Under the pieces are notes generated by a model, which was given only the letters and a program-made list of their open reading frames with translations, made no database searches and was not told the DNA's origin. The position numbers were made by a program, and so were the translations under genes. From assembly GCA_964016885.1 (NCBI GenBank), contig CAXHJY010001082.1, forward strand, positions 20,513-84,512: 64,000 nt of DNA. Reading direction: 5' to 3'. This document shows positions 3,841 through 63,881 of this stretch, one piece after another (within the stretch, counting starts at the first letter, position 1; the number at the start of each line of letters is the position of its first letter). Source of the DNA: Eledone cirrhosa (lineage: Eukaryota).

Positions 3841-3950
3841 TAGAACAGTTCTAGTCCTGTAGAAGCTCTTCTATATTAAAACTGTTATACTCTGCTTTGT
3901 ATTGAGTACCTTACTTCCTGTGGTTACCTCCGATTCAACCCCGGAATAAC
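3841..3950 (+). mobile_element. PLE terminal-repeat fragment, family B
   Basis: Reverse-complement match to 16559-16665 (CAGTTCTAGTCCTGTAGAA...TATTGAGTACCTTAC...CCGGAATAAC); (AT)n on both sides. Confidence 0.65.
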
Positions 3951-5346: not shown

Positions 5347-5480
5347 GTGGCGAATTGGTAGAATCGTTAGAACGACGGACACAATGCTTTGTGTTATTCC
5401 TTCTAGCTCTCTGAGTTCAAATCCCGCCAAGTTAAACTTTGCCTTTTATCATTTCAAGGTGGATAAATAAAGTACTAGGA
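5347..5480 (+). mobile_element. tRNA-derived SINE, degenerate
   Basis: A box-like TTGGTAGAATCGTTAG, B box GAGTTCAAATCC, then the family core AACTTTGCCTTTTATC...AAAGTAC. Confidence 0.7.
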
Positions 5481-8621: not shown

Positions 8622-9044
8622 TTATTAATAATGTTTTTACATATAATCAGCCTCCTATTCCGCTGAAGAGTCATACAGATACATATTGTGGACAACAGTG
8701 TGTGATGGGTAAGATTCAAAATTACAATTAAAAGCTTTTGGTGGAGCATGTGTCAGATAATACAAGAGCGTCTAGTACATAAATAAAATGAAAGAGACAG
8801 TACGTGCGTTAGTCATACATAAAGCAATTGAACAGGCAAAAGTATCAAGCATATACGAATGCTGGGTGTTGCATACAAAATACAAGCACATAAAGCAGGT
8901 GTGTTAACATATTATGGTAGTTGCAATGCTGAGATATTTTCAGTGTAGATCGAATATGTGTGTGTGTGTAGAATAAGACAGTTCCAGGTTTCACATCCAT
9001 TACATATGTCACGATGTATGTGTTGAGTGTTTGTTATAACAAAC

Positions 9045-9121
9045 ACTCAATACATAGCAGAGTATAACTATGTAATATAGAAATGGCTTCCATATGACTA
9101 GAACTGTTTCATTCGAAGGAA

Positions 9122-10076: not shown

Positions 10077-10189
10077 CTCTCTCTGTATTTCTGTTTAATC
10101 TGTTGACAGACTTGCATTTAATAGTCTTCTTTGAAAGTGTGTCGTCATCATTTTCATTCTGACGTCATAAACGATTCACCTCTGATTTA

Positions 10190-11025
10190 GACACAAGGCC
10201 ACCAATTTCCGTGTAGGCAAAGGTCGTGTGAATCGACCCCAGTGTGTTACTGGTATTTCATTTTAACAATTCCGTAAGGACGAAAAGCAAAAACTAACAT
10301 TGGTGGGATATGAATTCAGAACGTAAAGGGCAGTATCTCTACCGATGCTCTACCGATACTGCCAATTCACCGCCCTCATAATAATGATTTCATTTATTGG
10401 CCACAAGGGCCGACATATAGGGGACAATACAAAAGAGTGGGACAGTGGAGTTTTACAGAAACATCGAGTACACAATACGAATAACAATAACAAAGTAACA
10501 AGAAAAATACAAGAAAAATTCCTCAATAGGGGGGATGACCACTCAGGGTTCGCTCAGGTACCCCACCAATCCTGAACGACCCGACGCTTCGAGAGCACCC
10601 TAATAATAATTGTTTCTACTTTTGGTACAAGGCCAGCAATTATCCCAGTGAAATTACTGGTACTTTATTTTATCGACCCCGTAAGGATGAAAGACAGTTA
10701 ATCTCGGCGGGATTTGAACTCAGAGCGTAAAGGGCCGTAACTCTACGCTACAAAGCATGGTGTCCGACTCTCTACTGATACTGTCAAATGGTTTCTTATA
10801 TAGGCAAAAGGCCATCAATTTTTTGGGGGAGGGAAAAAGTCGAGTAAATCGACCCCAGTACGTTACTGGTACTTTATTTCATCGTTCCCGTAAGGATGAA
10901 AGGCAAAGTTAATGAAAGGCAAAGTTAACCTCGGCGGAATTTGAACTCAGTCCGTATACGGACGTAACTCTATACTGCAAAGCATGGCGTCCGGTGCTCT
11001 ACCGATACTGCCAATTCACTTCCCT
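10190..11025 (-). mobile_element. Three head-to-tail SINE copies (~10190-10375, 10612-10785, 10790-11025) with a probable LINE 3' tail at ~10385-10600
   Basis: Repeated CAAGGCC..ACTGGTACTTTATTT.ATCG..GTAAGGATGAAAG..GATTTGAACTCAG..CTCTACCGATACTGCCAA. Confidence 0.85.
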
Positions 11026-11029
11026 CATC

Positions 11030-12703: not shown

Positions 12704-12704
12704 A

Positions 12705-13140
12705 AATTGTTGGCCTTGTGCTTAAATCAGACACCGGTGGATTGGCAGTATCGGTAGAGGGTCAGACACCATGCTTTCCAGCATAGTGTTACGTCCCTTT
12801 ACGATTTGACTTCAAATTCCGCCGAGGTTAACTTTGCCTTTCATTCTTACAGAGTCGATAAAATAAAGTACCAGTAATGTACTGATTGCTGGCCTTGTGC
12901 CAACAGTAGAAACAATTATTTGAAGGCGCTGGATTGGCAGTATCGGTAGAACGTAGGACACCATGCTTCGGGACATAGAGTTACGGTCCTTTAAGTTCTG
13001 AGTTCAAATCCTGCTGAGGTTAGCTTTGTCTTTTATCCTTACGGGGTCGATGAAATATAGTACCATTAATTCACTAGGTCGATTACATCGACTTTCACCT
13101 TCCCCCAAAATTGTTGGCTTTGTGATTAAATCAGACACCA
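12705..13140 (+). mobile_element. SINE tail plus two head-to-tail SINE copies (~12736-12917, 12925-13137)
   Basis: GGATTGGCAGTATCGGTAGA (A box), TTCAAATTCC/GTTCAAATCC (B box), core and GGCCTTGTGC tail. Confidence 0.85.
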
Positions 13141-14760: not shown

Positions 14761-14954
14761 TAACGAAGGAAATGTGGTAAGGAACCAGGTGGACCATAAC
14801 GCACCAAAGTACTCAATACTTAGGGTAGTAGAGTGGGTAATAGGAACGAGTAGGACCCCGAAGGCTGAGCTCAAGCCGTTTCGACGGCTAATTCTGGACT
14901 AATTAGCCGTCGAAACGGCTTGAGCTCAGCCGTCGGGGTCCTACTCGTTCCTAT
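14761..14954. mobile_element. Fold-back PLE-type terminal insert, family A copy 1
   Basis: 54-bp inverted arms 14840-14893/14901-14954 with one mismatch; carries HHR 3' half GAAACGGC..GCCGTC; (AT)n on both sides. Confidence 0.75.
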
Positions 14955-16558: not shown

Positions 16559-16738
16559 GTTATTCCGGGTTGAATCGGAGGTAACCACAGTAAGTAAGGT
16601 ACTCAATACATAGCAGAGTATAACAGTTTTAATGTAGATGAGATTCTACAGGACTAGAACTGTTTCATTCATTAGAAATGATGATTTCTAATGAATGAAA
16701 CAGTTCTAGTCCTGTAGAATCTCATCTACATTAAAACT
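16559..16738. mobile_element. Fold-back PLE-type terminal insert, family B
   Basis: Perfect 55-bp inverted arms 16625-16679/16684-16738 with a 4-nt loop; GAAACAGTTCTAGTC HHR-like 3' half; (AT)n flanks. Confidence 0.75.
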
Positions 16739-26938: not shown

Positions 26939-27123
26939 TGAGGGTGGCCTAATCCATTATTATTTAGGTAATGTACATTAAGCTCGATGCATTATTATAT
27001 TCGAGAGAATAAAAACAATTGTGCAAATTAGATGGATTTTGAATAAAAACCTTTGTTTTACTTTAGTATTAACTACACACACACTCACCCCCCCTCACAC
27101 ATATATATATATATAATAATAAT

Positions 27124-27500
27124 TGTTTCTACTTTTGGCACAAGACCAGCAACTACCCAGTGCATTACTGGTATTTTATTTTATCGACCCCCCTAAGGAT
27201 GAAAGGTAAAGTAAACCTCGGCGAGATTTGAACTCACATCATAAAGGGACGTAACTCTATGCGTCAAAGCATGGCGTCCGACCCTTTACCGATACTACCA
27301 ATCCACCGCCCTTATATATAATAATAATAATAATAATTGTTTCTACTTTTGGCACAAGGCTATCAATTATCCAAGTGCATTACTGGTCCTTTATTTCATC
27401 AACCCAGTAAGGATGAAATGCAAGGTTGACAGACCGTAAATGGGCGAAACTCTATGCTGCAAAGCATAGTGTCCGAACCTCTACTGCTAGTGCCAATCCA
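27124..27500 (-). mobile_element. Two tandem SINE copies
   Basis: TTGTTTCTACTTTTGGCACAAG..TACTGGT..AAGGATGAAA..AAGCAT.G.GTCCGA, twice. Confidence 0.85.
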
Positions 27501-27734
27501 CTTGACGGAACTAGCATGGGATTCGCAGTTAGTACCGGTTGCATCTCAGCGTACTCAATAGGAAATGTTAAAGAAACTCTCAGCGTAGACACATAGTCAT
27601 TCGCTTCAATACAATGCACGTACATAGATAACTTCAATCGTCACCCGTACTCGAGTTTTGGCCACACTTAATGGAGCAATAGAGTGCACACACACCATCT
27701 ACTGTCTGCATTTATTATGAAGCAATGCACAATG

Positions 27735-28033: not shown

Positions 28034-28145
28034 AAATAACAGATTAAAGTTTAAGCAAAGAATCGCTGCTTTCACGCTTAACGGGATCTTCTGAAACTAA
28101 AAAAATCAATCTGTTAACGCAGAAGTAAATGTTTCGAATAACGTT
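28034..28145 (-). mobile_element. Repeat family C copy (inverted partner of 29177-29287)
   Basis: ~112-bp near-identical reverse complement. Confidence 0.7.
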
Positions 28146-28369
28146 GTAACTGAAGGAAAACAGGAAGACGATACTTTGATTCGTGAAGACGTTCCCTGGC
28201 AATGAACGGAAAAAAGCTTAGATAATACGTCGTTATGTGGAGCGTAGAGAAAAAATACACGCAAAGACAAAACCACGTTTATGGTATAAATGGAGTCATA
28301 GACTAATATTCTATTTAGGAAACCGAATGATTCTCGGCTTTGGATTTTAGTCTTCATATTTATTATCTA

Positions 28370-28809
28370 CTAGCAGATGTACCCGGCGTTGCTCGGGAAA
28401 TGAATGACAGCCTGTTTGTCCGTATAAAGAGAGCCAAAGGTTGAACAAAGAATTGAAATGTAATTGTAAAAAAAAAGTTTAACAAAATGGGTGTACAGTG
28501 ACATGATTGAGTGAAATAAACGGCAACATAAAAACAATTCATGGGGTAGCTTGAGTTAATTGACGGGAATGATTTCAGGTCCGGCCTTGCTGTAGTAGGT
28601 ATGAGTAAGGGGATAAAGATGGAATAGACGCACCGTATGTCCTTCAGTAGACTAAACCGTATGCGTAAGATGGCGCTGCCACTACCACGTTGACCATCCA
28701 CTGGACATAGAAATATCATTCCTTGAAGCAAATCGGCCTAGTACTTCAAAAGTTAAAAGGAGCCTAGTATTTGTACACAGACAAACAAACTTCCTTATAT
28801 ATATATAGA
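28370..28809 (-). mobile_element. Non-autonomous Helitron
   Basis: Minus strand starts TCTATATATATAT and ends with the CCCGAGCAACGCCGGG hairpin, a short spacer and CTAG|T. Confidence 0.75.
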
Positions 28810-28813
28810 TATA

Positions 28814-29116
28814 TCTAAAACAGAGAATGTCTGTCTGTCTGACTCCCTAAAACTCGAGAACCACCCAACCGACTTTTTTCAAACGTTACACATGTAATAC
28901 TTATGGCCCTGTGAGTCTTTTGAGCAAATAAAATTTCAAATTTTCAATGCCCTAGGGACCGCATTAGGCGATTTAGCGATCTCTCTCTATAATTCTTAGT
29001 CCTTCATTTTAGATAGATACATAGATGTACCGTTGCGCCCTTATAATATCTGTCTGTATATCTGGCTGTCTGCATTACGACATTATGACGTCACTATGTA
29101 TGTGTGTGTATGTATG

Positions 29117-29173
<57 letters not shown>

Positions 29174-29281
29174 TGTAACGTTTTTCGAAATATTTACTTC
29201 TGCGTTCACAGATTGATTTTTTAGTTTTAGAAGATCCCGTTAAGGGTGAAAGCAGCGATTCTTTGCTTAAACTTTAATCTG

Positions 29282-29325
<44 letters not shown>

Positions 29326-32854: not shown

Positions 32855-33125
32855 AAATGAAGTAATTCCGACGGAAAGTTCCAGGAAAAAAGAGTGCTCT
32901 ATGTAGGTTAAAGAGCTTGTTAGTTATGTAATAAACATCATAAAAGATAATTATTTAATTTACCAGTGGTTTCTTGAAAGCAAGCAAAATTGGCTTTCAG
33001 TCATCAGAATGAAAAAAAAATAAAATACACCAGGATTTTTTCATTCTGATGACTGAAAGCAAATTTTGCTTCCTTTCAAGAAACCACTGGTAAATGAAAT
33101 AATTATCTTATGTTGTTTATTACAC

Positions 33126-33130
<5 letters not shown>
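32855..33130. mobile_element. Fold-back insert carrying two divergent HHR motifs
   Basis: Inverted arms ~32921-33017/33036-33130; (AT)n on both sides. Confidence 0.75.
33039..33099 (+). ncRNA. Hammerhead ribozyme motif
   Basis: tttcatt-CTGATGA-c-tgaaag/ctttca-a-GAAA-cc(act)gg-TA-aatgaaa; 7-bp stem I, GUA site; mirror copy on minus at 32954-33014. Confidence 0.75.
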
Positions 33131-35809: not shown

Positions 35810-36544
35810 GAGTGTGTGTGTGTGTATATATGTATATATAACAGGATGATATTACTATCTACTCCAGAGCGAAGAAGGGAGTGTGCAACGTGTCTTTTAC
35901 ACGCTAGAAATAGCAGTTACATTTCCCTCAAATCATACTTTAATCTCCTGAACAATTAAGGAGGCTATTAGGAAATGAAGCCCTTGACATATCCTCAACA
36001 CACAAAGAAATTTACAACTGCCTTTCAGCAGTGTGACTCTCCATCAAACAGGATCTGATGAAAAATAACAAAAACTACAGTTTTAAGAAGGAATCAAATA
36101 TTTAAATGCAATAAATGTCCCAGAAACGTATGTAAGTTGTAAAATCTCAAAACAATATCTAGGGCTCATTTGTTTACACGGAGAAAAATTATTTTAATGT
36201 TTAGAATATGTTGAACATTAATTTCGAAGGCAGGAAAAAACTGTAAACACAGTTTATTACTATAAATAATATCTTGAAAAATCGAGTAAATTATCCTTTA
36301 TAGGGAAGATATGGCCAGCAGCCACAACAATAAACTGTGTTCCCAGTTCTTTCCTGCATTCGAGATTTTCTATATTTTCTATATTTTCTATATTTTCTAA
36401 TCATTTCAACTCACTCGACCCATCCCTCATTGTTTATTTATAAATTACGTTATATTTCATACATATTTGAATAAAGAAAATATGCATTAGACAAATGGTC
36501 TAGGATGGTGACGACTGGAATGCCTTTCATTAGATGAATTTAAG

Positions 36545-40383: not shown

Positions 40384-40604
40384 GTTGCGTGTGAGTGTGT
40401 TTGTATATGTGAGCGCGTGCGTCTGTGTCTGTGTTTGTCTGTATATAATATATAAATATCCTCACACATTACACACACACATATATACATATATATATGT
40501 GTGTGTGTGAGGATGTATATGTGAGCGCGTGTGACTGTGTGTCTGTGTTTGTATGCCTATAATATATAAATATGCCAACAAATATTATACATACACACAT
40601 ATAC

Positions 40605-40688
<84 letters not shown>

Positions 40689-41012
40689 CCAATTTCTGTT
40701 CAATTCCACCGTGTGTTCGTCGGTGATATGTTTCGTGACTTCGTGTTAAAAATACTTTGTTGAGTTAAATTATCTAATCTTCTGAATGTAAAGCTGTTTG
40801 AATCTTTCAGTGAAGTCTGTTAATATTTTATCGTATGTCTAAGCATAATTTGAACATCAAAATATTATGTAGATAGTAAAAATATGATTTCATAACAGTC
40901 AAAATAGATTGCTTATTACATTGTACATATAGCTTATTACGTTTTTAGTTCGTTTCAGCCGTCTATGGTAAGTTCATGATAGTGCAGCATCTTATATATA
41001 TATATATGTATA

Positions 41013-41193
41013 TAACGAAGGAATTGTGGTAAGGAACCAGATGGACCATAACGCACCAGAGTACTCAATACTTAGGGCAGTAGAGTGGGTAATAGGAAAA
41101 AGTATGACCCCGACGGCAGAGCTCAAGCCGTTTCGACGGCTATTTCTGGACTCCAGAAACGGCTTGAGCTCTGCCGTCGAGGTCATACTTTTT

Positions 41194-41198
<5 letters not shown>
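41013..41198. mobile_element. Fold-back insert, family A copy 2
   Basis: Homologous to 14761-14954; arms 41092-41134/41156-41198. Confidence 0.75.
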
Positions 41199-41225
<27 letters not shown>

Positions 41226-41230
<5 letters not shown>

Positions 41231-41475
41231 ATAAATATTTCGTATCTCCGAAGAAATACGGTTTTAGGAAGCCGTAGCTATGCAAACACCGGGGGGGGGG
41301 GGGGGGGGGGGCTAACGCCCTCTGGTGATGTCCAGCAGAAGCAAGGAGGCAACCATCTATGCATTTCAGGCTTAACTGGCCTTCGTCAGGACGGTCCCTC
41401 CCACCGCTTGCGACTGCTGCACTAGAAGACAGGCGAAAACCGTATTTCTTCGGAGATACGAAATATTTATACAAA
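41226..41475. mobile_element. 250-bp element with perfect 40-bp terminal inverted repeats enclosing an HHR
   Basis: TTTGTATAAATATTTCGTATCTCCGAAGAAATACGGTTTT at 41226-41265 and its reverse complement at 41436-41475. Confidence 0.8.
41352..41395 (-). ncRNA. Minimal hammerhead ribozyme, intact core
   Basis: accgtc-CTGACGA-aggc(cagttaa)gcct-GAAA-tgca-TA-gatggt; palindromic stem III ATGCAT. Confidence 0.85.
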
Positions 41476-41554
41476 TTGTATAAAGCTATGCTTGAAGCAA
41501 AATCCTAAATATTTATTTATTTATTTAATTATATAGTAAACAACACAGTATAAT

Positions 41555-41628
41555 TATTCCATTACCCAAGGTTTCACGAAGTTAGAGGATTCTAACAGAG
41601 ACGCCTTGTTCGTTCATCAGATGAAATA
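41555..41628 (-). ncRNA. Hammerhead ribozyme, intact core
   Basis: tatttcat-CTGATGA-acgaa..ttcgt-GAAA-cc(ttg)gg-TA-atggaata; 8-bp stem I, GUA site. Confidence 0.85.
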
Positions 41629-41714
41629 TTTCTATCTATATGTATATATTGTTTAGGGATCGATGCGTAGTTTCCAGCAGGTATATGGGTGTTGTTCTAA
41701 GCAGAGTGCAATAT

Positions 41715-41890
41715 TTGTTTCTACTTTAGGCACAAGGCCAGCAATTACCCAGTGTATTACTGGTACTTTATTTTATCGACGCCGTAAGGATGAAAGGCAA
41801 AGTTAACTTCGGCGGGATTTGAACTCAGAACATAAAGGGTCCTAACTCTTTGCTGCAAAGCATGGCGTCCGACGCACTACCGATACTGTC
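41715..41890 (-). mobile_element. SINE
   Basis: Same family as 10612-10785. Confidence 0.85.
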
Positions 41891-41938
41891 AGTGTAATAA
41901 TAATAATAAAAAGGACGCGGTGTTAGATTTTATTTCTT

Positions 41939-42023
41939 GAAGTGTGACGCGCGTTTCGCGATTGAGCAGCTGAAGGCTCGATTTGTACCAATCGGACCCG
42001 ACACTGAAGTTCGTCGGACTTCT
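41939..42023 (-). ncRNA. Hammerhead ribozyme motif, degenerate (related to 35587-35668)
   Basis: CCGACGA...gc-GAAA-cgcgcg-TC; flanked by an imperfect inverted repeat GGTGTTAGAT/ATCTAACACC. Confidence 0.5.
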
Positions 42024-42070
42024 AAATGTAATGAAGATCTAACACCTCATCTTTTTTATTATTATTATAT

Positions 42071-42134
<64 letters not shown>

Positions 42135-42145
42135 GTGTGTGTGTG

Positions 42146-42227
42146 TATCCCGAGTTCAAACGGGGATAACCACAGTAAATAAGGTACTCAATACATAGCA
42201 GAAGCAGAGTGTAAATATTCTATATAG

Positions 42228-42303: not shown

Positions 42304-43116
42304 TAGCAGCTGAGCCCGGTTGCACCCGGGGCCACTTTTTATTAAGTTAATAATTAAAAAAATATTATTGAAAGTTTATTATAAAGAAGCAGTTTCAGGA
42401 AAATAAATAGAAATATGCACTTGGGGCTGGACGGCGTACAATGAGAAGGTAAGGGTTTTATTTCTTTTGTTAGAAAACAGTGACCTTTTTCGATTTGGCA
42501 TTTCGTAAAATTTTACTGCAGAATCGATTTCAGAAAACGATACTGTATGATCGTTATAGAAGTATTTAAATTTAATATAGAGCAAGTGTAATTTGAAAAA
42601 TGAAAATGAAACGTACTGTAGAAGGCAACAGTTTATTAATCTGCATTTTCAAACTTGCATATCATCGACATTGCTATTTCCCTGTTAATAAACAACGCTT
42701 TTTACGTCGCTCCACCTCTCATTGTACGCCGTCCAGCCCCAAGTGCATATTTCTATTTTTTTCCCTGAAATTGTTTCTTTATAATAAACTTTCAATAATA
42801 TTTTTCAAATTATTGGTACTGTATGTTAACAGCGAAAGAACGTTGATGAGTTTAAAAATGTGTATGAAATTGTAAATAACTCATCCAAGTATTAGAATAG
42901 GGGGAAATAACTCACCGAACGCGATAGTAAATAGACCGTTTGGGGGCCCTAGGGACCACATTTTTCAAGTTAGAGATTTGAAACCTCGTCTATTTGCTTC
43001 CTTGGCACTTTTTACATAGGTGTGTAAATTTTCATGTCCGTCCGACCACGTCTACTACCATTTAACCGTGTACATCTGAATTTCAACCACCACCCATTTC
43101 ACAAATATATATTAGA
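42303..43116 (-). mobile_element. Non-autonomous Helitron containing a ~90-bp internal inverted repeat
   Basis: Minus strand A|TCTAATATATAT ... CCCGGGTGCAACCGGG hairpin plus CTAG|T. Confidence 0.8.
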
Positions 43117-49634: not shown

Positions 49635-49985
49635 TCCGAGCATCTAACTTACACTGCTTCGGACTCACACACACGGACATCCACCAACTCCTCTCCTTCG
49701 TTGTGGATAATGCACTCTTCAATTTCCTCGGCCACACGTAGAAACAAATCTCTGGGCTACCTATGGGCTCTAGTCTGTCCGGCATACTTGCGATCTCGTA
49801 TATGGACCACCTGGAACGCAAGGCACTCAATACCTGCCAACCCAACGCCGTCGCCTTCTACTCCAGATACGTTGATGACATCCTGATACTTACTTCTTCC
49901 CGGGAGATGGCGAATGAAATTCACCAAATCTTCAACGATACTGACCATCACGTCGATTTCACCATCGAACACCCAGGAGAAGACA
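49635..49985 (+). pseudogene. Penelope-like element reverse transcriptase fragment
   Basis: [55 protein letters not shown]: PLE-type RT motifs; in-frame stop, truncated. Confidence 0.88.
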
Positions 49986-50333
49986 TTTGTTTTTGACATT
50001 TTGAATATTCATCCGCAATCATTATTATTTTTTCTCTCTATCATAAATCTTTTTAATCTCAATTTCATCCTTAATTTATCATTATTTTTTTCTCCCCATC
50101 AACGAACTCATTATTAATACATATCAATTCAATATACAAACTTTAACTTCACATTATTTTTCTCAAATCCTTCTACACTTCTCAAATCCTTCTACACTTC
50201 TCAAATCCTTCTACCTTAACAATTTTTCTCTTCGCTAATTTTGAAATTGCCACAATACATACATTTCTTCTTTTGACGTTAGAATATTCACCCACAATTA
50301 TTATTTTTTTCTCTCTATCTTCATACATAATTT

Positions 50334-50840: not shown

Positions 50841-50911
50841 TGTTTTATCTGATGAAAACACAAATATTATTGCTTGATGATGTTTGTTTTTGAAATGCGC
50901 ATAATAAAATA
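50841..50911 (+). ncRNA. Hammerhead ribozyme in a PLE terminal repeat
   Basis: tgttttat-CTGATGA-(~16-bp stem II, GCTT loop)-GAAA-tgcgca-TA-ataaaata; palindromic stem III ATGCGCAT; same strand as the upstream PLE RT. Confidence 0.88.
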
Positions 50912-51360: not shown

Positions 51361-51520
51361 TAACAAAGGAAATGTGGTTAGGAACCAGATGGACCATAAC
51401 GCACCAGAATACTCAATACTTAGGGTAGTAGAGTGGGAAATAGGAAAAGGTATGACCCCGCCGGCAGAGCTCAAGCCGTAGAAACGGCTTGAGCTCTGCC
51501 GTCGCGGTCATAATTTTTCC

Positions 51521-51523
<3 letters not shown>
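51361..51523. mobile_element. Fold-back insert, family A copy 3
   Basis: Homologous to copies 1 and 2; arms 51440-51479/51484-51523. Confidence 0.75.
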
Positions 51524-51672: not shown

Positions 51673-52083
51673 AGGCGGGTAAAATTCCCGAGATCCATGG
51701 ACGAGTTCTCTCCAGCGGTCTCTGTCCCTCATTATCGCTGCCATATCCTGCATCTCCAACAGACCAGTGTCTGTCCTTAGGGCATCAACATATGTTAACC
51801 TTGGTCTACCTCTTCTAGTGTGTCCATGTAAGGGCTCCCAAAGCAGGAGAGTTGGGGCAAAAAAGGTATCGGATGCTGAATTTGCCGACGACATAGTTTT
51901 GGTGACAAATACAGTGAAGGAGGCAGAGGATTTGATGCGGGAGGTTGAGACTGTGTCGATGAGTGGGGGGGGGGGGGGGGGGGGCTGAGAATGAATGAGA
52001 CTAAAACAAAATATCTGGTAGAGAATGTTGAGAAGCCAGAGGGGATCACTAATGTTGGCGGGAAGCCGCTGGAATTGGTTGAA
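51673..52083 (-). mobile_element. 5'-inverted RTE LINE: 3' end on minus joined to an RT core fragment on plus
   Basis: Minus [25 protein letters not shown]; plus [28 protein letters not shown]. Confidence 0.85.
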
Positions 52084-58049: not shown

Positions 58050-58247
58050 TGTGTAGCGTGAACTAAAACGAAAGCTTAATGCAGTTCCGTTCGTTTTACG
58101 CGGACGTAGTTGACAATAGTCGTAAATAAATATCAGATTGTATCGCTTGAAAGTCATGACACCATATATTGTGTTGTGCTGTTGTCTACTACGTCCGCGT
58201 AAATCGAACGAAATTGAATCGATCAAGCGTTTTTCGTTGATTACACA
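58050..58247. mobile_element. MITE-like inverted-repeat element
   Basis: CGTTCGTTTTACGCGGACGTAGTTGACAATAG versus CTGTTGTCTACTACGTCCGCGTAAATCGAACG, with weaker outer extension. Confidence 0.6.
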
Positions 58248-62019: not shown

Positions 62020-62062
62020 GTCACTGAAGAGGTCACATAATGTGTGACGAAAGAACTTTGAC
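62020..62062 (+). ncRNA. Hammerhead-like motif (variant)
   Basis: gtca-CTGAAGA-g-gtcaca/tgtgac-GAAA-gaac-TT-tgac; one extra G and a very short stem III. Confidence 0.5.
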
Positions 62063-63506: not shown

Positions 63507-63881
63507 TATCAAAATGAAGATCCGAAGGCATGGTATATATTTTCAATCATTTTAATCACGACACATGTTTCAATAAGAGATAGATTGATCGTGTAGCCAT
63601 GATCGATTATCACTGAACTCGTCAGGTGAAAATGAATTGTCTTCAAATCCTTGATATGAGGGAGAAAACTAACGATGTTCTCTCACAGAGTGGACTAAAC
63701 TCTGTAAGTGAACATCGTGAATTTTTTCCCTCATATCAAGGATTTGAAGACAATTCATTTTCACCTGACGAGATCAGTGATAATCGATCATGGCTACACG
63801 ATCAATTTATCTCTTATTGAAACATGTGTCGTGATTAAAATGATTGGAAATTTATACCATGCCTTTGGATCTTTCTTGATA
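63507..63881. mobile_element. ~375-bp imperfect palindrome with two divergent HHRs
   Basis: ~185-bp arms around a 7-nt loop at 63692-63698. Confidence 0.8.
63761..63834 (+). ncRNA. Hammerhead ribozyme motif
   Basis: tcac-CTGACGA-gat..att-GAAA-catgtg-TC-gtga; GUC site; mirror copy on minus at 63556-63629. Confidence 0.75.

Follow-up and report, generated by a model that had tools for sequence, protein, structure and literature searches.

Organization of the 250-bp locus

Positions 41226-41265 and 41436-41475 of the window—the whole 64,000-nt stretch of DNA analysed here, AT-rich, of animal type and with 24,221/64,000 bases masked as simple repeats—are exact reverse complements of each other (40/40 matches, or 41 when the next outward A/T pair is included). 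The two arms enclose a 170-bp interior (41266-41435), resulting in 250 bp from arm end to arm end, and each carries an 8-bp hairpin with a UUCG loop (41241-41260 on the minus strand, mirrored at 41441-41460 on the plus strand). The left arm directly adjoins, with a gap of 0 nt, a (TA)n microsatellite (41196-41225), the putative insertion target. The GC content of the interior amounts to 62%, or to 56% without a run of 21 G residues on the plus strand (41291-41311), which reads as C21 in the sense of the ribozyme described below. Both the perfect 40-bp inverted termini and the poly-G tract of the original prediction are hence present as described. The Pfam scan of the window's reading frames revealed no ORF remnant in the 250-bp unit.

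Orientation of the element was taken from the strand of its hammerhead. In the ribozyme sense, the minus strand comprises 39 nt, the hammerhead, 85 nt including the C-run, the left arm, and (TA)n. Given this order—from the hammerhead via the left arm into (TA)n—the left arm (minus strand) would represent the 3' end of a 210-bp unit, the main 5'-truncated copy, and the interior (minus strand) the body of a putative truncated copy of pLTR or retrozyme type. The right arm (plus strand) would be an inverted copy of the unit's own last 40 bp, placed at the unit's 5' side: a second, likewise 5'-truncated copy with a head-to-head joint at 41435/41436.

G/C runs of at least 10 residues occur five times in the window, and one of them (G20, 51965-51984) lies inside a reverse transcriptase (RT)-like remnant. 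We considered the poly-G tract of the element as a functional module and dropped this idea, as the G20 run likewise interrupts that remnant, itself a weak one (RVT_1 E = 0.13, below the cut-off). The G21 run is likely incidental, a local homopolymer expansion or an assembly error.

A type I hammerhead motif on the minus strand

Combining a descriptor of our own with RNA folding, we located a type I hammerhead motif in the interior (41351-41396, minus strand). It spans 46 nt with a 7-bp helix I; counting 6 bp, it is the intact 44-nt hammerhead that had been proposed from the sequence. The motif comprises the core CUGACGA and GAAA, a 4-bp helix II with a 7-nt loop, and a helix III of 1-2 bp consisting of the palindromic AUGCAU, while helix I can be extended by five pairs beyond one bulge. 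Cleavage at the AUA triplet is predicted after position 41358, placing the cut 132 nt from the left end that adjoins (TA)n. The minimum-energy fold contains helices I and II. When the interior was dinucleotide-shuffled 20,000 times, the strict-descriptor motif never arose (0/20,000), nor did it in 200 block-shuffled windows (0/200). Searching the window against Rfam yielded nothing that reached the gathering score, and no hammerhead family was among the 26 weak matches in the region 40600-42100; the ribozyme call therefore rests on our descriptor and on folding. In the predicted fold of the whole unit's minus-strand RNA, the two arms pair as a 40-bp stem that closes off a loop containing the hammerhead; its z-score of -9.9 is uninformative here, since any perfect inverted repeat yields it trivially.

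Helix II is closed by an A-U pair (A10.1-U11.1), the usual pair being G10.1-C11.1 (PMC4209133). As described in the same source, a single minimal motif showed no cleavage, and motifs with a small palindromic helix III work as dimers. Because motifs with a palindromic helix III of 1-2 bp act in this way, the lone hammerhead is predicted, by analogy, to cleave poorly and to need a tandem partner. Its neighbor is a second type I hammerhead with an 8-bp helix I and a long helix II (41555-41628, minus strand), located 80 bp from the 250-bp element; its cut site lies 205 nt upstream of that of the 41351-41396 motif on the same strand, and its helix III differs. A 205-nt chimeric circle cut by both hammerheads was rejected: helix I would not be rebuilt (2/7 pairs), and the helix III halves differ. 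The neighbor cannot supply the partner helix either.

The right flank is related to the element

The unit continues past position 41475, with 41476 to approximately 41514 being related to both arm and interior. This one-sided extension (41476-41514, plus strand) measures 35 nt to the first microsatellite and 39 nt to the end of a second arm-related 9-nt motif, ends in an (ATTT)n run, and is a candidate tail of a Penelope-like element (PLE). A palindrome spans the boundary between arm and flank (41466-41484, plus strand); its 9-bp complement folds into an 8-bp stem with a 3-nt loop, and the right arm stops within this loop. None of 63,616 other window positions reached 9 bp of complementarity in a test that was designed after the match had been seen. 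In addition, an 8-nt segment of the interior (41276-41283, minus strand) is repeated on the plus strand at 41484-41491, through which minus-sense interior would be able to pair with plus-sense extension. In tests likewise chosen post hoc, a match of at least 8 nt to the 25 nt next to the arm was seen in 129/20,000 random non-microsatellite 45-mers from the window, and the two-strand fold of the minus-sense end with the flank (-27.1 kcal/mol) was reached by 9/2,000 GC-matched and 95/2,000 unmatched 40-mers. The duplex between the interior alone and the flank was as good in 10% of 5,000 random draws, and thus not significant. Neither a tandem nor a permuted repeat of the unit's 5' part is present in the extension, where the longest match measures 5 nt.

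Inspecting the arm boundaries (41226/41475 and 41225/41476) revealed no exact target-site duplication (TSD) of 2-12 bp. The right half of the 41466-41484 palindrome is at the same time a 9-bp direct repeat of 41227-41235, and the first 9 nt of the flank (41476-41484) can be read as a 9-bp TSD together with that segment. When the repeat is taken as a TSD, the ends of the element lose their inverted repeat (4/15 matches).

Searches for further copies

A blastn search at word size 7 identified no second copy of arm or interior in the 64-kb window, returning the arms themselves and a 13-nt AT-rich match. Neither the TSDs nor the tandem arrays envisaged by the original prediction were recovered: the window contains no second unit, and no exact repeat of 2-12 bp lies outside the arms. 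GTDB genomes gave 0 matches to a 28-mer from the arm and to the hammerhead pattern, phage and plasmid records contained no match to the element, and a protein search with one of the six translated frames (70 aa) gave 0 matches among 4 and 326 candidates. Three matches to the 70-aa frame in a representative library were set aside as low-complexity, two of them extending over the poly-proline of the C-run and the best lacking an aligned stretch. These blanks say little, as none of the GTDB, phage, plasmid and protein sets is a collection of eukaryotic DNA. The arm 28-mer was also absent from the supplements of PMC8557442 and PMC13282606, a weak negative given that these files contain line-wrapped or cut sequences and that the second comprises only 5,371 characters.

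Other hammerheads and fold-backs in the window

Five hammerhead-bearing loci were detected in the window (41351, 41555, 33039, 50841 and 63761). While a strict scan returned 41351, 41555 and 50841, a relaxed scan, which produced one match in 5/200 shuffled windows, added 63761, and a scan tolerating an unpaired base, run without shuffle control, added 33039 along with a weak candidate at 62020 that is not counted here. A microsatellite lies 35-132 nt beyond the cut site in four of the five; at the fifth, (TA)n is located 7 nt from the mirror arm. The 41555-41628 hammerhead sits in a solo fragment of ~115 bp (41527-41640), a diverged member of the fold-back family at 33 kb; this fragment ends at ~41527 in an (ATTT)n/(TA)n run. 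Another solo type I hammerhead, with a palindromic helix III (50841-50911, plus strand), has its cut site 43 nt before (TA)n. Two further loci are head-to-head fold-backs with a hammerhead in both arms: 32923-33128, with (TA)n on its right and an extension of ~70 nt followed by (TA)n on its left, and 63517-63873, with arms of ~175 bp, a long helix II in both hammerheads, and (TA)n on the left only. The hammerheads of these two fold-backs point outward, so that the copies are joined head-to-head with their 3' ends outside. The 250-bp element had been singled out as unlike the other fold-backs; its hammerhead does lie outside the arms, but this amounts to a difference in arm length only, given that the longer inverted copies at 32923-33128 and 63517-63873 include the hammerhead.

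Seven fold-backs were measured, chosen by eye: the 250-bp element and six of 11 close inverted repeats, leaving out those at 9017, 28035, 36224, 42349 and 58079. In six of these seven, one end lies at most 6 nt from a microsatellite and the opposite side bears an extension of 35-77 nt; at the seventh, 7 nt separate one end from (TA)n, and no (TA)n follows on the other side up to the window's edge. Extension (35-39 nt) and cut-to-end distance (132 nt) of the 250-bp element contrast with 67-77 nt and 35-43 nt, respectively, at the other loci. The arms of other fold-backs match at 55/55, 53/54 and 42/43 positions, and those of the diverged ones at 88/95 and 161/171. With regard to age, the identity of the two arms had been read as a sign of a recent origin; identical they are, but the constraint is weak, because 0/40 mismatches bounds the divergence to less than about 7%. 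Perfect arms occur commonly in the window.

One fold-back family has three copies, each located between (TA)n runs (14763-14954, 41015-41198 and 51363-51523, i.e., at 14.8, 41.1 and 51.4 kb) and carrying a 77-nt one-sided extension. Both outer ends are fixed in this family and the centre is variable; in two of the three copies, but not in the third, the left arm finds its nearest match in the right arm of the same copy. No hammerhead was found in the family, which, by analogy, may represent the end of a hammerhead-less (Naiad-type) PLE. Hammerheads are described from all non-Naiad PLE clades, including an octopus Hydra family (PMC8557442).

Several other repeats populate the window. Another (TA)n-adjoining family is present at 3844-3950, 9017-9114, 16559-16738 and 42146-42202, and the 16559-16738 copy is a fold-back whose 55-bp arms match perfectly and which is extended by 67 nt on one side. 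An abundant dispersed repeat of ~180 bp, often in tandem pairs (5352-5478, 10181-11028, 12704-13140, 27116-27503 and 41710-41891), presumably resembles an octopus SINE. Larger inverted repeats at 28035-29286 and 42349-42814 possess arms of 111 bp and 98 bp, separated by ~1 kb and 270 bp, respectively, and the start motifs near them are ones we take to be Helitron-like. Older, diverged inverted repeats are located at 36224-36363 (89%) and 58079-58219 (70%).

Reverse transcriptase remnants

The Pfam scan covered 150/158 unmasked frames of at least 52 aa (the eight left out being simple-repeat frames) and returned a single match above the cut-off, RVT_1 at 49742-49993; neither a GIY-YIG domain nor a transposase was detected in the window. 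This RT remnant, which contains one stop codon (49664-49975, plus strand; RVT_1 E = 1e-9), is located 8 kb from the 250-bp element. It has two relatives among 22 candidates (733 and 578 aa), with a DKG motif ~240 aa before YVDD and no GIY-YIG domain. The DKG motif is among the diagnostic PLE regions (PMC8557442), and the remnant likely stems from a PLE.

Arm plus extension as the N-terminus of a PLE ORF found no support: BLASTP against one PLE-like protein gave E = 1.0, and 907-1,314/2,000 shuffles scored equally. A LINE-like remnant at 51673-52083 consists of pieces on opposite strands and bears the above G20 run within its RT-like frame; a 173-bp part of it is repeated at 1038-1210.

The locus as a probable Penelope-like element insertion

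The inverted repeats that flank PLE insertions arise from an inverted, 5'-truncated copy located at the 5' end; a tail of 30-40 bp is often confined to one end, and in (TA)n targets TSDs go unseen (PMC8557442). Among the PLE junctions covered in PMC3846280, the head-to-head arrangement is the commonest, a 31-bp tail occurs on one inverted pLTR, and TSDs are either 8-10 bp long or absent. In vitro, both strands are cut and extended, and the tail spans the interval from one RT start site to the other, both lying in an AC-rich stem-loop, as documented for one Poseidon element (PMC11167929). As for cephalopods, PLEs account for 6.83% in Octopus vulgaris, with 190 families, versus 186 kb of MITE (PMC13282606), figures that bear on the locus only if its host is an octopus, as the SINE and microsatellite content of the window may suggest. 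For squid, 235 hammerhead matches are given (PMC6962438).

The 250-bp locus shares this anatomy. It has a type I hammerhead near its 3' end (41351-41396, minus strand, cut 132 nt from the end), an inverted 5'-truncated copy joined head-to-head (the right arm, equivalent to the last 40 bp in the hammerhead sense), and an AT-rich target, with (TA)n adjoining the left end and (ATTT)n following the extension. The right flank carries a candidate tail of 35-39 nt that is present on one side only and related to arm and interior; a 9-bp TSD can also be read there. The relatedness of the right flank to the element, the recurring fold-back geometry, the match with published PLE anatomy, and the nearby PLE-like RT remnant together point to an ordinary insertion made by a PLE as the most likely origin, one in which we have good confidence: a likely 5'-truncated, hammerhead-bearing 3' end (41435 to 41226, minus strand), arranged head-to-head with its own inverted last 40 bp and a predicted tail. 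By this comparison, the structure of the locus, known here from one copy, would be that of the published PLE footprint and thus already familiar. Counting against a PLE origin are the lack of a second copy in the window and of any match in the protein, GTDB, phage and plasmid sets, the post-hoc nature of the flank tests, the weaker fold result without GC matching and the non-significant duplex of interior and flank, and the alternative 9-bp TSD at the flank. The same holds for extension and cut-to-end lengths unlike those at other loci, the choice of the fold-backs by eye, the one family copy in which the two arms are not closest to each other, the arm-plus-extension frames unlike the N-terminus of the PLE-like protein, the absence of GIY-YIG from the RT relatives, and the A-U pair closing helix II. 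A joint occurrence of arm and interior elsewhere does not discriminate between the readings, as PLE origin predicts it too.

Mechanistically, a PLE RT/GIY-YIG protein encoded elsewhere would nick AT-rich microsatellite DNA on both strands, and cDNA would be primed from both nicks. Synthesis of the first cDNA, 210 nt in length, would begin within the loop of the 41466-41484 hairpin, and that of the second, of about 75-79 nt, at a point of the RNA lying 35-39 nt further 3'. Joining of the two cDNAs at their 5'-truncation points would leave the ends inverted and only one of them extended. Since it encodes no protein and holds a single hammerhead in need of a tandem partner, the insertion is predicted to be a dead end.

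Alternative explanations

The original prediction had offered two origins, a retroelement with an inverted terminal duplication, akin to a retrozyme, or a MITE that captured a hammerhead. The former stands as to the kind of element, the duplication being the known head-to-head PLE structure; it does not stand as a retrozyme proper, for retrozymes are defined as tandem units, derived from pLTRs (PMC7229834; bioRxiv 10.64898/2026.07.22.740005). A tandem retrozyme was rejected on the grounds that the window holds no second copy and that the next hammerhead (41555-41628) is of another family with another helix III. The proposal could be recast as a fixed, non-autonomous fold-back retrozyme, that is, a panhandle of 250 bp or ~290 bp with a constant inner junction, copied whole via RNA by PLE proteins. 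Such a unit would lie within the 150-450-nt size range of retrozymes (PMC7229834), which are PLE derivatives with dispersed monomers (bioRxiv 10.64898/2026.07.22.740005), and in its minus-strand RNA the 40-bp stem would close around the hammerhead (z = -9.9). Yet that z-score is trivial for a perfect inverted repeat, the element occurs as a single copy in the window, the only multi-copy fold-back family there has variable centres, and the extension lacks a tandem or permuted repeat of the 5' part (longest match, 5 nt), rendering a fold-back retrozyme improbable to us. We see still less of a chance for a retro-insertion with other boundaries, in which the element would comprise 41236-41475, the exact 9-bp direct repeat at 41227-41235 and 41476-41484 would be its TSD, and the extension would be host DNA. 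TSDs of 8-10 bp do flank inverted-pLTR PLE insertions in Adineta (PMC3846280), but with these boundaries it would be an unexplained coincidence that the insert's final 10 nt (41466-41475) read as the supposed target in reverse complement, and another that 41484-41491 match the interior. Even so, this would still be a PLE-type event, differing in its boundaries only.

The least probable readings, about equally so, place the locus outside PLE activity. That the element is a MITE with 40-bp terminal inverted repeats (TIRs) and a captured or contained hammerhead fragment would fit its perfect inverted termini and its length of 250 bp, but neither boundary pair shows an exact TSD of 2-12 bp, reading the 9-bp repeat as a TSD destroys the terminal inverted repeats (4/15), the right flank is related to the interior of the element, and the arm has no other copy in the 64 kb; the MITE origin first suggested is thus not borne out. 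A full-text search, whose scope excludes most subscription journals, found plant papers only and none titled on an element combining MITE, hammerhead and TIR. Alternatively, a one-off template switch during repair or replication, or a fold-back introduced by the assembly, might have produced the second arm by duplicating 40 bp of a solo hammerhead fragment that is itself older. Perfect arms, the G21 run and microsatellite-rich surroundings (24,221/64,000 bases masked) would be in keeping with either, and such structures trouble assemblies (PMC8557442); however, a simple duplication brings no flank that matches the interior, and the diverged arms of fold-backs with the same geometry (88/95 and 161/171) are unexpected from an artefact. 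Two further element types were discarded. DIRS elements of the ITR type, as defined in PMC8969392, possess an internal complementary region, of which there is none here (longest same-strand complement of the interior to extension or arm, 5 nt), and of 56 A-box matches in the window (at most 2 mismatches) that might have marked a tRNA-derived SINE, none falls within 41226-41475 (0/56).

Significance

As an ordinary PLE footprint, the 250-bp element matters little, for fragments of this kind exist in the thousands in many animal genomes (PMC4209133). On the preferred PLE reading, it is an example of a PLE insertion that, judged solely by its outline, may be mistaken for a MITE, and an arm ending in a hairpin loop would be the genomic counterpart of the RT start sites described in vitro for one Poseidon element (PMC11167929). 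Were the inner junction at 41435/41436 constant, the element would be a new structural variant of retrozyme; and if a fixed fold-back retrozyme of ~290 bp proved true, it would imitate a MITE while depending on PLEs, and repeat libraries would wrongly list it among the MITEs.

Comparison with known systems

MITEs, as characterized in PMC8969392, are similarly short, non-coding and bounded by inverted termini. The 250-bp element differs from them in lacking a TSD at its arm ends and in having a related extension on one side and a strand-specific ribozyme; a partner transposase was not found in the window.

With the min-HHR described in PMC4209133, the hammerhead shares palindromic positions around helix III and a predicted need for dimers, and these motifs, too, are mostly single, dispersed and tied to truncated PLEs. 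In the min-HHR of that paper, helix II measures 7-8 bp and helix I 4-5 bp, A9 is followed by an additional base, and the pair G10.1-C11.1 is present. The 41351-41396 motif, in contrast, has a 4-bp helix II, a 7-bp helix I, no extra base, and A10.1-U11.1, and is closer to the variant with a 'small palindromic helix III'.

Metazoan non-LTR retrozymes (PMC7229834; bioRxiv 10.64898/2026.07.22.740005) resemble the element in being non-coding, a few hundred bases long and, as is presumed for the element, PLE-dependent. Their type I hammerheads, as far as these sources detail them, have a helix I of 6-7 bp, a helix II of 4 bp and a weak, palindromic helix III, similar to the motif studied here. The element departs from them in that its hammerhead is single rather than tandem, making it at most a solo derivative, and in that its helix I is broken by a one-base bulge only; its predicted fold lacks an internal loop 1.

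The comparison extends to EN+ PLE insertions, of the Penelope/Poseidon, Neptune, Nematis and Hydra clades (PMC8557442, PMC3846280). In contrast to these, the 250-bp element is without an ORF and without a tandem pLTR, its inverted copy comprises only 40 bp plus the extension, and it contains a C21 tract. Like the EN+ PLE insertions portrayed in these sources, the element is 5'-truncated, bears a type I hammerhead close to its 3' end and a head-to-head inverted copy resulting in terminal inverted repeats, and adjoins a (TA)n target with no TSD discernible at the arm ends; its one-sided extension, a candidate tail, is in their size range of 30-40 nt.
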